Below, one piece after another: positions 12,466 to 50,283 of a stretch of 51,548 nt of DNA. The first letter of the stretch is position 1, and each line of letters starts with the position of its first letter. The notes beneath the pieces are model-generated. The model was not told the DNA's origin. It worked only from the letters and a program-made list of their open reading frames with translations, and searched no databases. Source of the stretch: Escherichia phage SKA49; the sequence record NC_079180.1; one strand, 5' to 3'. The position numbers and the translations under genes were made by a program.

Positions 12466-12484
12466 ACATTAGTTGGATGTGGAA
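12466..12484 (+). promoter_or_regulatory. phage promoter-like motif ACATTAGTTGGATGTGGAA
   Basis: Best consensus copy; about 75 nt upstream of the codon-optimised gene 12560. Confidence 0.6.
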
Positions 12485-12898: not shown

Positions 12899-13795
12899 GT
12901 TGCCGATGGCAAACTTGAGAGACTAAGCTAAATCGATCTGGCATGCACTGGAAGTTTCCGGTGCTGCCTTGAACCCATTCCAGAGTGAGTGGGCTTCAAT
13001 TTGTACATAATTCAAACACCAGTGCATGAGCCTTCGACGGAAGGCAATGTTGGGAAATTTGTTGTGTACAAATTGAAGTAGTTTTCTGAGTCTTACGACG
13101 GGCCTAAACTGCCTGGAGTTATTGCGACTGTTTTATTCATTTAAAATAAATGCAAATGATTCTGAAATGCGAGTTGCGGCTTAATTAAATTTAAGTCCTC
13201 TCCGTGGTCTTCCAATCCCACGTAACCAAATTTGGCGCATTGTGGCTTCGAGATGTGATTAATAAATCGGAGCAATAATTAATTTGTATTCTGCGATGCA
13301 AAGCAGGCTTAAGTCCTCCAGTGCGCGTGGGGATGTGACAGAGTACAAACTTAATTATGCAGTTGGATATTTCTAGAGGACGGACGAGCACACTGGAATG
13401 TCTTCAATTGGTTTAGTGTGAGAAGCTATGCCAATTTGAAACGTAACTCCTTGGGGAAGTGCTCCTCTGGATTTCCCTCCACGCAGGAATCTCAAGCCTG
13501 TGGCAGTGACTTCGAAGCTGCACTGCGTAACCTAATTCACCCTAAAGTGAATTGCCCTGAGCATGGAAATAAACTGCTCAAACCGATGGTATCTACAAAG
13601 GTAGATTAAATCAGGTTGCCTGTTGGTACTTGGGTTCAACACCTGCTTGCACTCGCAAAGTAGTGCCTCGTACCTGAGATGAAGTGAGTCGGGACCATCA
13701 ATCCCACGTTATGTCAAAACACAGTAGGCGACTCACGGATTCTACAAGCCTCGCAGTTCGGGAAAACCTGCGTTATCAAAACCCCCCACCTATTT

Positions 13796-13887
13796 GGACG
13801 AGTAGCTCAGAAGGTTTGCATTGTGCTCAGTCAGGTAGAGCAATCTGTTCGACAGATGTGTCGTTGGTTCGAATCCAACCTCGTCCA
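13796..13887 (+). tRNA. tRNA-like element (possible tRNA gene or pseudogene; isotype undetermined)
   Basis: Perfect 7-bp acceptor stem GGACGAG/CTCGTCC, canonical T-arm GTTGG-TTCGAAT-CCAAC, discriminator A; core about 19 nt longer than standard, with duplicated GCTCAG flanking a 20-nt insert. Confidence 0.4.
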
Positions 13888-13917
13888 CCCATTTTCAACA
13901 ATAAACATGGAGTCCTC

Positions 13918-14058
13918 ATGGACATTGATGCACTAGACAATTTGGACTTCGGTGCTGCCGAAGAAGCAATTGAAGAACTCAAGAAAAAGCAGGACGAAGA
14001 AGCAATCGTTCCTGGTGCTGGCGATAATGACTGCTCAAGCGGTGCGTGTGCCATCTAA
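13918..14058 (+). CDS. possible small acidic protein (46 aa)
   Basis: ATG with GGAG RBS 7 nt upstream; C-terminal part of track ORF 13684..14058, whose 5' part overlaps the tRNA-like element. Confidence 0.3.
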   Translation: MDIDALDNLDFGAAEEAIEELKKKQDEEAIVPGAGDNDCSSGACAI

Positions 14059-14066
14059 GGTGATTT

Positions 14067-14303
14067 ATGCAACAGCTTAAATCAGTAATTCTTGGCGTCC
14101 TGACTGCATTTGGTATTATCATTGCAGTGTTCCTCAAAGGCAAAAGCTCAGGCAAAGCCGAGGAGCGTCAGGAAGCCAAAGAGAAGCAATTCGATTCCAT
14201 TAAAGAATCTATCGAGATTAAAACGCATGTTCAGAAAGAAGTGTCTAGCAGTTCTGATAGCAATGTCGATAGTGAGTTGCTCTCAAAGTGGGTTCGTAAG
14301 TGA
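14067..14303 (+). CDS. small membrane protein (N-terminal TM helix, charged C-terminus; 78 aa)
   Basis: AAGGTGA RBS; TM segment SVILGVLTAFGIIIAVFL. Confidence 0.45.
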   Translation: MQQLKSVILGVLTAFGIIIAVFLKGKSSGKAEERQEAKEKQFDSIKESIEIKTHVQKEVSSSSDSNVDSELLSKWVRK

Positions 14304-14436
14304 TTATTGCTTAATTGCACAACCAATCTATTTGGATGTTGCAGAAGTGAAAATCTTATCACGCGAAACCAAAACACAGATTCTAGTCCACAATGAAACG
14401 TGGGCACAAAAGTGTTCTCAACTTACCCGACAGTGA
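14227..14436 (+). CDS. possible lipoprotein (69 aa) overlapping the 3' end of 14067..14303 in another frame
   Basis: Signal-like MFRKKCLAVLIAMSIVSC with lipobox-like IVSC; weak RBS. Confidence 0.25.
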   Translation: MFRKKCLAVLIAMSIVSCSQSGFVSDYCLIAQPIYLDVAEVKILSRETKTQILVHNETWAQKCSQLTRQ

Positions 14437-15499
14437 GTGAACAAGATGAGCCTGTTGCATCTATAAATAAGTACAGTGAAACAAATGCTCGCCATCGCAT
14501 TTCATTTGGCAGTCCGGTACGGGACTTTAAACACACGTATATCATAGTCGAGGGAGTGCGCGACTTTAAATAACGAGACTCTAGCTACTTGTAGCATAGT
14601 AGGTGTAATTCCTGGTGCTCTGGGCATAACACATGATAAATTGCTGCCTCCTAGGATTGGAACGTCCCGCTACACATCGTTAGTGTGAGAAGGTTAGTCC
14701 ACCGAGACAAAGGCTTGCGGCTTGACTCCGGCCAAAGAAGAAAACGGCGTGCTTGAGAACGAAGCTCCGATGACTCCGTAAAGTCAACGTAATGAACGCG
14801 AAAAGTTCAGGTGGTCACTTCCTAAAACAGTGTCCGAGAGCATCCTCGCCAAAGTGCTTGAGAACGTTAGCTCTGTCTTGCCAGCATTAATGGCACGTTG
14901 GCCGCGTAAAGGCCACAGCGTCTGACCAACGTATCGGTCACCAAATTCAATGGATTCGTAGAGTTAATTAAACCTGCACGATGGGATAGGGATATAGCAT
15001 CCGAGGCCGACTGTGTAATTGCTGGCTTACTATAAACCAGCCGAATCCGCCAAATCAATGGGCTAGTGCAAATGTCAGTCACTAGAAGATGTGTTGCAAA
15101 ACGTCTTCCATGATGTGCAAAGTGTCAGTCACGTGCCCGCCAATTTCCTCCAACAGTTATGCCTCTGTTCAAAAGGCTCAAGAGAGCGTCTGGCATACCG
15201 TAGCGATACGGCTTAGTTGCGCTGATTGTGTTGTGCAGAAAGAAAGTTCAGGCTTTCGTTTGGGTTACTCCTCATCCCGAAGTTAGCTGGATTCAAAATC
15301 CAGACTATGTTCCTATACACATGAAATATGCAAGTCGAGGGTTCTTAATGTTCAAACATGATGCGAGCATTAAGCGGGTTTATACTTTTCCCCGATGGTC
15401 CCCATAAACAAGGCTGATTCACTTGGGCGGTTCGAATCAAATTTAATAAGTGTTTTGTAATACTCAGGGCACTTACTTAAATTTTAACTGGAGAGAAAC

Positions 15500-15730
15500 A
15501 TGAAAACTGCTGAAATTGCCGAAGAGATTTATAAGGCCGTAATAGCCAACCAAATCACAAGTGAAGTCCTGCACATGGATATTGAAGAAGTTCGCAATGC
15601 CTTTGGTGGTTTTGCAATCTTGTCAATAGAAGCTGCGGAAGCACTGACAAACACGTACAATCAACGCGAATATGAAAAGCGTTCTGTACTAAATGCGTCG
15701 ATGAAAGAAATTCAGGCGTCATTAAAATAA
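15500..15730 (+). CDS. hypothetical protein (76 aa)
   Basis: GGAGAG RBS; track ORF. Confidence 0.55.
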   Translation: MKTAEIAEEIYKAVIANQITSEVLHMDIEEVRNAFGGFAILSIEAAEALTNTYNQREYEKRSVLNASMKEIQASLK

Positions 15731-15786
15731 TACCATTATCATGGTGCGGAGCTAATTAATCTCCCACCATATGAACCGGAGAGCAA

Positions 15787-16437
15787 ATGATTACTGCAAC
15801 ACTCGTTGACCACATGGGCAGCGACCTCACCACTGTTAATGCTGCACGAGTTTCTTATGGTGCAGAGTCGCATGAAATATCTTTACGTGACGAGAAGCTG
15901 ATTGAGTTTCTTGCAAAGCATAAGCACATTACGCCGTTTCGCCACGCACAGGTAACATTGCGTTGCAAAGCTCCAATCTTCATTGCACGTCAGCTTGGCA
16001 AACATCAAACTGGCTTTAGTTGGAATGAGGTTAGCCGTCGTTACAAAGATGGCGAAGCAATCTCTATTGAATGCTTTGTACCAGGTGTTGTATTTGGTCG
16101 TCCTGAAAAGTTGATGACTCAGACTGCACAACCGTTGCCACAAGATTTTGCTGACGATATTCATTATCGCATGGAAAGCCATAACAAGGCTTGCATCGCA
16201 GAGTATGAAACGTTAATTGGTTTGGGGATTGCCCCAGAGCAAGCTCGCATGGTTCTCCCACAATCCATGATGACTGAATGGATTTGGACTGGCTCACTTT
16301 ATGGCTGGGCATCTATGTATAATCAACGTTCCTCCGAACATGCGCAATATGAAGTTCGCTTGTTTGCGGAAGAAGTGAATAAAATCATGTCAGAACTGTT
16401 CCCAATTTGTTGGAAGGCTCTGACCAACCAGGAATAA
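15787..16437 (+). CDS. thyX: ThyX-like flavin-dependent thymidylate synthase (divergent)
   Basis: ARQLGKHQTGFSWNEVSRRY resembles the ThyX RHRx7S signature, with KHQ in place of RHR; N-terminal AARVSYG block. Confidence 0.55.
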   Translation: MITATLVDHMGSDLTTVNAARVSYGAESHEISLRDEKLIEFLAKHKHITPFRHAQVTLRCKAPIFIARQLGKHQTGFSWNEVSRRYKDGEAISIECFVPGVVFGRPEKLMTQTAQPLPQDFADDIHYRMESHNKACIAEYETLIGLGIAPEQARMVLPQSMMTEWIWTGSLYGWASMYNQRSSEHAQYEVRLFAEEVNKIMSELFPICWKALTNQE

Positions 16438-49369: not shown

Positions 49370-49711
49370 ATGGAACGATTATCCATTCAGATGTTTATCG
49401 ACCTCATGCACCAATATGGTGTTTGGCATGGATTGCTGGCTGGTCTGACGGCTTTAATCCGTGGGGCATATGAAAGTGAGGGATTAAGCAAAGCGTTGCT
49501 GGATGCAGCGCTATGCAGCTTGATTGGCCTGTTTGCCTTTCATGTTGCTGGCACATTTGAAACTTTTACGACTAACGTCACAATGCAGTTAGTTCTGGCT
49601 ATCGTGATTGGTGTCATTGGTGCTAACCTCATTATCACAACTGTCAGGGAAAGTTTCTCTGGCGCAATCAAACAACTTAACCCTTTAACGTGGTTCAAGA
49701 AGGCACGATGA
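49370..49711 (+). CDS. holin (lambda S-like)
   Basis: AAGGA RBS; 113 aa with hydrophobic segments GLLAGLTALI, LCSLIGLFAFHVAG, LVLAIVIGVIGANLIITTV. Confidence 0.65.
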   Translation: MERLSIQMFIDLMHQYGVWHGLLAGLTALIRGAYESEGLSKALLDAALCSLIGLFAFHVAGTFETFTTNVTMQLVLAIVIGVIGANLIITTVRESFSGAIKQLNPLTWFKKAR

Positions 49712-49728
49712 AATGATAAGGAACTCGA

Positions 49729-50283
49729 ATGCTATCATTCAAAGTCCTTGCACTTCTGGCAGCTTTAGTTCACATCAACGCCCCAGCTTCGGTTGGGGCA
49801 GTGAATTCTGCTATTACAGATTTTGCAAGTCATTCTTATTTAAATGGAAGTCTGAAACTATCTTCTTCACAACGCAAAGAGCTAGAATGCTACACTAAAG
49901 TTATCTGGTATGAAGCTCGCGGAGAAGACAAACATGGAAAGATTCTGGTAGCTAATGTCGTCCGTAATAGAACTGAGTTCGGGAAGCCATTCGCTAACAC
50001 CGTTTGTGATGTTGTCTATCAACGCAATCAATTTGCATGGACACGAGAAGCAAAGAAGAAGAATGCTCAATGGAAGCATGTAGCAAAGATTAATTATGCC
50101 ACAGAACAACAACAAGTTCTGGACACCATTAGTGTTGCAATCTCTTTTGTACTATTTAATCAACCCTCTGTCACCAAAGCAACCCACTTTTGTACAGCAT
50201 CTGAGAAGTGCAACTTCAAGAATGTTAAAGGTCTGGGACGTTATGGTGGCCATAAATTCTATGAGTATCTAGGAAATCTGTAA
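49729..50283 (+). CDS. SleB/CwlJ-like cell wall hydrolase with N-terminal signal sequence (endolysin candidate)
   Basis: [25 protein letters not shown]...[15 protein letters not shown]; N-terminus [24 protein letters not shown]; AAGGA RBS. Confidence 0.7.

Follow-up and report, generated by a model that had tools for sequence, protein, structure and literature searches.

A probable overlapped two-component spanin gene pair, unlinked from the holin and endolysin genes, in a Carltongylesvirus coliphage

The stretch of DNA analysed here (the window; 51,548 nucleotides, Escherichia phage SKA49, NC_079180.1) carries all of its genes on the + strand. A megablast search with positions 13000..16000 found 57 phage records, with phiEcoM-GJ1 as the best match at about 95% identity, and on sequence similarity the window is assigned to a Carltongylesvirus coliphage (phiEcoM-GJ1-like; Chaseviridae, Cleopatravirinae). 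Among replication and nucleotide-metabolism genes of this phage lie two short open reading frames, ORF A and ORF B, which overlap in different frames and probably encode the i-spanin and the o-spanin of a two-component spanin. The features of the locus, together with the lysis genes and the nearest upstream copy of a phage promoter core, are the following.

12468..12477, + strand: promoter core ATTAGTTGGA, the nearest exact copy upstream of the pair and a candidate promoter of the spanin transcript
14058..14064, + strand: Shine-Dalgarno sequence AGGTGAT of the putative i-spanin gene, read from the sequence and conserved in relatives
14067..14303, + strand: putative i-spanin gene (ORF A), 78 aa, with a transmembrane (TM) peak, a match to phrog_1026 and orthology to phiEcoM-GJ1 gp31
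14214..14217, + strand: weak Shine-Dalgarno-like GAGA, read from the sequence, 10-13 nt upstream of the putative o-spanin ATG and inside the i-spanin coding sequence
14227..14303, + strand: dual-coding overlap of 77 nt, read in frame 0 as residues 54-78 of the i-spanin and in frame +1 as the signal peptide and first mature residues of the o-spanin
14227..14436, + strand: putative o-spanin gene (ORF B), 69-aa precursor and predicted 52-aa mature lipoprotein, with a lipobox, a match to phrog_1275 and identity to the phiEcoM-GJ1 protein
49370..49711, + strand: holin gene, 113 aa (PF05106 Phage_holin_3_1, E = 7.5e-8; orthologue annotated as holin/anti-holin in phage Mangalitsa)
49729..50283, + strand: endolysin gene, 184 aa (PF07486 Hydrolase_2, E = 1.3e-15; orthologue annotated as endolysin in Mangalitsa)

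The product of ORF A starts with MQQLKSVILGVLTAFGIIIAVFLKGKSSGK and is most hydrophobic at residues 7-23 (mean Kyte-Doolittle value of 2.92 for this 17-mer). Its predicted topology is that of an N-terminal TM anchor at about residues 3-25 followed by a helical, highly charged periplasmic domain, which would place the N-terminus inside and the C-terminus outside. Charged residues make up 41% of the remaining 54 residues, which contain no cysteine, and the C-terminal end of the protein is formed by the conserved motif SDSNVDSELLSKWVRK. An AF2 single-sequence model (mean pLDDT 74) has helices at residues 3-25, 31-60 and 68-77, read as the TM helix, a long helix and a short C-terminal helix.

ORF B starts 160 nt into ORF A and is read in the +1 frame relative to it. 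The N-terminus of its product is MFRKKCLAVLIAMSIVSC, of which the signal portion, up to Cys18, is MFRKKCLAVLIAMSIVS; this portion has K/R near the N-terminus, an uncharged hydrophobic core and the lipobox I-V-S-C with Cys18 as predicted lipidation site. A PROSITE PS51257-type rule for lipoprotein signals was passed with the cysteine at position 18, and when the rule was applied to all ATG-started ORFs of at least 40 aa in the six frames of the window, ORF B was the only one of 592 to pass, so that its lipoprotein signal is not explained by chance. Serine occupies position +2 after the lipobox cysteine and the Asp inner-membrane retention signal is absent. The predicted mature protein contains one proline and two further cysteines, Cys28 and Cys63, both invariant in the family. 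An AF2 single-sequence model of low confidence (pLDDT 51) places one helix in the signal and another near the C-terminus, at 46-67, and the models of both proteins agree with published secondary-structure predictions. A unimolecular spanin of the T1 gp11 type was considered and rejected, as the lipoprotein has no C-terminal TM or hydrophobic segment (its end is …WAQKCSQLTRQ) and the membrane anchor resides on the separate protein encoded by ORF A.

The original prediction had placed the first ORF at 14067..14303, with an N-terminal TM helix and a charged C-terminal part, and the second, a putative lipoprotein gene starting inside the first and running past its end, at 14227..14436; both sets of coordinates, which include the stop codons, proved exact, and the predicted properties of the two products and the topology of the two frames were borne out. 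The description of the arrangement as embedded was not: because ORF B runs 133 nt past the stop codon of ORF A, the architecture is 'overlapped', the term for an o-spanin gene whose start lies within the i-spanin gene, in a different frame, and whose end lies beyond the i-spanin stop; an embedded o-spanin gene would be contained completely in the i-spanin frame. The phiEcoM-GJ1 orthologue is likewise entered as 'ovl' in SpaninDB.

Sequence variation at the locus was analysed in an alignment of 14 Carltongylesvirus-like sequences, in all of which (14/14) both ORFs are intact and have ATG starts. Only 2 of the 77 sites of the overlap vary, compared with 47 of 274 sites in the single-coding parts (32/160 in the part coding only for the i-spanin and 15/114 in the part coding only for the o-spanin; Fisher p = 6e-4). 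In the o-spanin-only part, 10 of the 15 variable sites fall at third codon positions of ORF B and none at second positions (binomial p = 0.0085). In the single-coding region of the i-spanin, 14 variable sites fall at first, 6 at second and 12 at third codon positions, so that third positions are not enriched. Across 44 records, identity amounts to 95-100% for ORF B and 78-96% for ORF A. From the conservation, the third-position bias and the constraint on the overlap it follows that ORF B is a protein-coding gene under purifying selection, and both reading frames are under such selection.

Profile searches place both products in catalogued spanin families. ORF A matches phrog_1026 'Rz-like spanin' over its full length (E = 3e-19; profile of 85 positions) and ORF B matches phrog_1275 'Rz-like spanin', also over its full length (E = 1.1e-17). 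Neither protein matched the Pfam profiles of lambda Rz (PF03245) or Rz1 (PF06085) at E-values up to 10, no spanin match was obtained for either in NCBIfam, and the Pfam and NCBIfam scans gave only sub-threshold noise; the pair therefore lies outside the lambda Rz/Rz1 profile families and belongs to sequence families of its own.

The pair is already known through its orthologue in phiEcoM-GJ1, which was catalogued in 2018 with identical geometry and an identical o-spanin sequence. In SpaninDB (Kongari et al., 2018, PMC6139136), phiEcoM-GJ1 is listed under 'Overlapped' in the family tables of both i-spanins and o-spanins, its i-spanin as a singleton family and its o-spanin in a family of two together with that of Pectobacterium phage PM1. 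The supplement of the same paper gives an i-spanin gene at 14724-14961 (237 nt), an o-spanin gene at 14884-15094 and a 77-nt overlap ('ovl'), a geometry that matches the pair of the window exactly. According to its protein entries, the i-spanin has 78 aa, one coiled coil (residues 26-58) and a 55-aa periplasmic domain with 64% helix, and the o-spanin has 69 aa and a 52-aa periplasmic domain with 42% helix and 17% strand (PMC6139136). Public annotation of the pair is uneven. Orthologues of ORF A in RefSeq (phiEcoM-GJ1 gp31, flopper gp67) are labelled 'Rz-like spanin', ORF B is annotated as spanin, Rz1 or o-spanin in Mangalitsa, BSBP01, PYps23T, PYps16N, 2KOFFS, 4HA13 and PM1, and in five of these (Mangalitsa, BSBP01, 2KOFFS, 4HA13 and PM1) the spanin annotation covers both ORFs. 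In many of the public Carltongylesvirus records the o-spanin is missing or cut short, or the 78-aa i-spanin is mislabelled as 'endolysin' or 'L-alanyl-D-glutamate peptidase'. A literature search turned up no experiments (complementation, knockout or lipid labelling) in which this spanin family or another spanin of the Chaseviridae had been tested.

A wider alignment was made of the pairs from 11 phages, namely the window, five Carltongylesvirus-like phages, 4HA13 (Sabourvirus), PM1 (Suwonvirus), Faunus (Faunusvirus), Aeromonas phage phiA050 and the lambdoid phage mEp390. In every phage of this set, which represents five or more genera, a gene for a TM-anchored protein is followed by an ORF with a lipobox. 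The C-terminal regions are the most conserved parts of both proteins. Invariant in the o-spanins of the 11 phages are the lipobox cysteine, Cys28, Pro33-Ile34, Lys50, His55-Asn56, Trp59 and Cys63, and conserved in the i-spanins are a juxtamembrane G.S and a C-terminal D..VD.EL..W.R, while cysteine is absent from 11/11 i-spanins. The length of the overlap varies: the two genes share 4 nt (ATGA) in 4HA13, Faunus and phiA050, whereas they have 77 nt in common in Carltongylesvirus, 86 nt in mEp390 and, in PM1, up to 140 nt. Carltongylesvirus has the shortest proteins of the set, the alignment leaving gaps of 7 aa within the helix of its i-spanin and of 6 aa behind the lipobox of its o-spanin. Homologues of ORF B with 30-50% identity occur in the other genera and in lambdoid lysis cassettes, and in mEp390 and HK639 the homologous pairs are located directly downstream of holin-holin-endolysin genes, a context which ties the family to lysis.

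Taken together, these data indicate with a probability of roughly 0.9 that ORF A and ORF B are the i-spanin and o-spanin genes of an 'overlapped' two-component spanin in a Carltongylesvirus coliphage, a functional assignment based on homology, topology and context. The properties used to recognize two-component spanins (after Summer et al., 2007; Kongari et al., 2018) are seen as follows: one protein has a single N-terminal TM segment and a mainly helical, coiled-coil-type periplasmic domain, the other has a signal peptidase II lipobox without Asp at +2 and, predicted from its sequence, at least one periplasmic cysteine for homotypic intermolecular disulfides (Cys28 and Cys63), the genes are overlapped, both products and their SpaninDB-listed orthologues (phiEcoM-GJ1) belong to catalogued spanin families, and the phage, a coliphage and thus one of a Gram-negative host, encodes a holin (PF05106) and an endolysin (PF07486). 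The resemblance to Rz/Rz1 spanin pairs that had been put forward for the locus is supported by the PHROG families, the SpaninDB orthologue, the cassettes of mEp390 and HK639 and the purifying selection.

A mechanism can be proposed by analogy with the model for lambda Rz/Rz1 and T4 (Berry, Rajaure, Young and colleagues, summarised in PMC6139136). The inner membrane would hold the N-terminal anchor of the i-spanin, whose C-terminus would reach into the periplasm, and the o-spanin, after cleavage by signal peptidase II and lipidation at Cys18, would be carried by the Lol system to the inner leaflet of the outer membrane. Binding between the C-terminal regions of the two proteins would create a periplasm-spanning bridge caged by the peptidoglycan mesh, with Cys28 and Cys63 of the o-spanin probably forming the required homotypic intermolecular disulfides and the i-spanin lacking cysteine as in T4. 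Once the holin has triggered and the endolysin has destroyed the murein, the freed complexes would collapse and fuse the inner and outer membranes, and this fusion would remove the last barrier to virion release.

Three doubts had been attached to the spanin reading, namely the distance from the holin, the shortness of both proteins and the weak ribosome-binding site (RBS) of the lipoprotein gene; as facts they are correct, and as arguments against a spanin they do not hold. The holin and endolysin genes, the latter coding for a cell-wall hydrolase domain and a hydrophobic N-terminus of secretory or SAR-like type, are indeed located about 35 kb away near the right end of the window, just before nrdB. 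This unlinked position is conserved across the Chaseviridae, the pair lying upstream of thyX in all Chaseviridae genera examined, and the T4 spanin genes pseT.3 and pseT.2 are likewise unlinked from the lysis genes (PMC6139136), so that the distance does not speak against a spanin. As spanins are inert until the wall is degraded, neither the timing nor the location of their genes has to match that of the holin, which would account for the position of the pair among DNA-metabolism genes. Both proteins are short, and their periplasmic parts of 54 and 52 residues are near the lower end for bridging the periplasm, but they are not extreme: SpaninDB contains pairs that are shorter or of similar size, such as those of phiHSIC (69/64 aa) and phi1M2-2 (77/69 aa) (Kongari et al., 2018, PMC6139136). 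The GAGA at 14214..14217 is the sole Shine-Dalgarno-like element in front of ORF B, so that this gene has only GAG(A) compared with the AGGTGAT of ORF A; the same GAG is annotated as RBS in phage Mangalitsa, and the region is conserved in 14/14 relatives.

With regard to transcription, the core ATTAGTTGGA is common to both annotated phage promoters of phiEcoM-GJ1, and allowing up to one mismatch it occurs 16 times in the window (4.3 expected), 14 of the 16 matches being on the + strand. The position of the nearest exact upstream copy, at 12468, suggests that the pair may be co-transcribed with middle genes. Around the locus, sigma-70 promoters (5 found, 4.5 expected) and intrinsic terminators (4 found, 3.0 expected) were at background, and Rfam scans detected tRNA only, in addition to two tmRNA-like matches far below threshold.

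A more far-reaching version of the spanin reading would see in the pair a natural near-minimal two-component spanin, with periplasmic parts of 54 and 52 residues and deletions of 6-7 aa relative to the sister genera, whose single-helix subunits might bridge and fuse the membranes in a manner unlike the collapse of a two-helix hairpin modelled for lambda Rz; or else the pair, if its expression goes with that of the middle genes, might have a further role before lysis. We regard either proposal as a long shot.

The small size of the proteins could also mean that the pair is what remains of a spanin that has lost its function and is decaying, and that a different factor, for instance a disruptin-like peptide, disrupts the outer membrane. 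The deletions of 7 aa in the i-spanin and 6 aa in the o-spanin that make both proteins the shortest of the family would fit such decay, as would the lack of third-position enrichment in the single-coding region of the i-spanin (14, 6, 12). However, neither frame is disrupted in any of the 14 genomes, the o-spanin hardly varies, there is next to no change in the dual-coding overlap, the C-terminal motif of the i-spanin is fully conserved, and even shorter pairs that look functional, for example that of phiHSIC, are found in SpaninDB. A remnant is rejected as very improbable because intact frames and conservation reflect selection rather than decay.

The location of the genes among replication and nucleotide-metabolism genes, some 35 kb from holin and endolysin, raises the alternative of a membrane protein/lipoprotein system with early or middle expression and a role other than lysis, such as superinfection exclusion or receptor masking; T5 Llp and the Cor lipoproteins are the comparison cases for lipoproteins of that kind. 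In Mangalitsa, a gene for a T4 Imm-like exclusion protein is present about 500 nt upstream of the pair in the same variable region, but when this gene was looked for in the window it was absent. Moreover, both proteins are homologous to pairs that directly follow holin and endolysin genes in mEp390 and HK639, and a TM-anchored helical protein combined with an overlapped outer-membrane lipoprotein is the defining combination of a spanin. A Gram-negative phage with holin and endolysin normally needs a spanin, ORF B as the sole ORF passing the lipobox rule leaves no other spanin candidate in the window, and unlinked spanin genes have the precedent of T4. A non-lysis membrane function is therefore unlikely, and less credible again than decay.

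That ORF A alone is real, as the gene of a small membrane protein, and ORF B a chance lipoprotein-like open frame is hardly conceivable and is excluded by the conservation data, for although ORF B has a weak RBS, no match in Pfam or NCBIfam and no complete annotation in many public records, it is better conserved than ORF A, is intact with its ATG in all relatives aligned, shows third-position bias in its own frame and suppressed nucleotide variation in the overlap, matches phrog_1275 at 1e-17 and has homologues of 30-50% identity, both in other genera and in the lysis cassettes of lambdoid phages, that share its invariant Cys, Pro, His-Asn and Trp residues.

As a spanin the pair is ordinary, and its importance is mostly a matter of annotation quality: the reading given here can correct the omissions and truncations of the o-spanin and the mislabelled i-spanins in public Carltongylesvirus records, while the spanin pair of the phiEcoM-GJ1 group has been part of the curated spanin census since 2018 and several GenBank/RefSeq records are already correct. 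Beyond annotation, the almost invariant 77-nt overlap is a clean textbook case of dual-coding constraint, and within one homologous spanin family the overlap length shifts between genera (4, 77, 86 or at most 140 nt). The small pair could serve as a convenient minimal system for studies of the spanin mechanism, which is an opportunity rather than a discovery.

Among known systems, the pair of phiEcoM-GJ1 (gp31 and an o-spanin that is unannotated in RefSeq) is the closest, with genes of 237 and 210 nt, a 77-nt overlap, the +1 frame and a position upstream of thyX as in the window. The o-spanins are 100% and the i-spanins 91% identical, and the seven substitutions, all conservative, are confined to the TM/helix region of the i-spanin and entail no structural difference. 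The pairs of the other Chaseviridae (PM1, 4HA13, Erwinia phage Faunus and phiA050) have both components homologous to those of the window and share with them the invariant Cys, Pro-Ile, His-Asn and Trp of the o-spanin, the C-terminal motif of the i-spanin and the place before thyX, but their proteins are 6-24 aa longer, o-spanin identity is 45-54% and the overlap differs in length. In the BcepNazgul o-spanin family (HK639, mEp390 and Pseudomonas phage AF), the motif C..PI…K..IL.HN..W…C is found at 29-38% identity, which is below the 40% family threshold of SpaninDB, and the i-spanin partners of this family have the same C-terminus D..VD.EL..W.R and the same overlapped architecture, whereas their genes stand in a classical holin-endolysin-spanin cassette.

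With lambda Rz/Rz1 the pair shares the combination of a type II inner-membrane protein with a lipoprotein of the outer membrane whose gene uses the +1 frame of the same DNA and, presumably, the membrane-fusion mechanism. There is no sequence similarity (no Pfam match), and the lambda genes are fully embedded and part of the lysis cassette whereas the pair of the window is overlapped. Lambda Rz has 153 aa, two helical domains and two cysteines, in contrast to the 78 aa and absence of cysteine in the i-spanin of the window, and Rz1 is proline-rich with one cysteine, in contrast to an o-spanin with one proline and two periplasmic cysteines. The T4 pair PseT.3/PseT.2 is similar in having an i-spanin without cysteine and an o-spanin with two conserved periplasmic cysteines and a predicted C-terminal helix, but it differs by its separated architecture and by the size of its proteins (117 and 83 aa), and no sequence homology was detected between the two systems.

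Just upstream of the spanin pair lie a tRNA for which the type calls disagree, a very acidic ORF and a mosaic stretch poor in ORFs:

13082..13790: ORF-poor, mosaic stretch, especially at about 13358/13545
13795..13891, + strand: tRNA
13919..14059, + strand: very acidic ORF of 46 aa (MDIDALDNLDFGAAEEAIEELKKKQDEEAIVPGAGDNDCSSGACAI), with its stop 8 nt upstream of the i-spanin start

ARAGORN calls the tRNA as a tRNA-Leu(cag) of 97 nt, Rfam matches a tRNA with 45 bits across 92 nt, and the record of phage phiEcoM-GJ1 (GJ1) labels the same tRNA as 'tRNA-Arg, may contain an intron'. Its counterpart in phage Pel53 is a normal tRNA-Arg of 71 nt that is identical in the 3' two-thirds, and the D-arm region of the copies from the window and GJ1 holds GCTCAG twice, with about 20 extra nt in between. 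The anticodon loop GTTCGAC would read Arg(UCG). The window may thus carry a tRNA-Arg gene that is interrupted or has received an insertion.

Two ORF-poor stretches enclose this region. In the equivalent of 13082..13790, Mangalitsa carries an inserted T4 Imm-like superinfection-immunity gene that the window lacks. Two annotated genes, GJ1 'gp30' and Mangalitsa 'gp35', map to this stretch and look like weak gene calls, the latter running into the tRNA start; at 12991..13239, Rfam gave two tmRNA-like matches that were far below threshold. On the other side, no convincing ORF was found in about 1 kb (14437..15500), and an Rfam scan of the same interval gave no match. The first ~100 nt 3' of the o-spanin stop are an indel hot spot, into which an HNH endonuclease is inserted in DE15. 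By contrast, identity with GJ1, Mangalitsa and flopper reaches 92-99% across 14793..15457, even though no long ORF lies there. This could reflect a non-coding element under conservation, or small genes that have escaped annotation.

The 46-aa acidic ORF is kept at the same position in all close relatives, where it is labelled 'hypothetical', and family searches with it returned no match except a weak PHROG one (E = 0.05). It may share one transcript with the spanin genes. Candidate promoters were sought with the core of the annotated phiEcoM-GJ1 phage promoters:

2564, 6997, 12136 and 12468, + strand: promoter core ATTAGTTGGA, with near matches elsewhere in the window

At no more than one mismatch the window holds 16 matches vs 4.3 expected, 14 of them on the + strand, and the copies crowd into its left 24 kb. 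This distribution is consistent with promoters for a single-subunit RNA polymerase of the phage's own.

The distant lysis genes include one further feature:

49729..50283, + strand: endolysin, a PF07486 cell-wall hydrolase with a hydrophobic segment at its N-terminal start

Because it starts with this segment, the endolysin may be secreted or of the SAR type, which, if true, bears on the type of holin encoded at 49370..49711.

Annotation errors were found in public records of related loci, namely PYps23T (L006), Pel53 (L012), MLP1 (L013), DE15 (L016), PYps16N (L018) and BSBP01 (L019). The 78-aa i-spanin is wrongly labelled 'endolysin' in PYps23T, PYps16N and PO103-1 and 'L-alanyl-D-glutamate peptidase' in Pel53. 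In some records the o-spanin is cut back to the internal Met13, with loss of the signal peptide, and other truncated calls are 38-42-aa ORFs starting 3' of the i-spanin stop. A 73-aa ORF upstream of thyX erroneously bears the label 'tail tape measure protein'.

The recorded host of PP952070.1 ('Staphylococcus phage Pel53') is Staphylococcus hyicus. Pel53 is a member of the Chaseviridae, about 91% identical to this region of the coliphage, and both its spanins, the inner-membrane protein and the outer-membrane lipoprotein, are intact. Such a pair is without function in Gram-positive bacteria. The host assignment looks doubtful.
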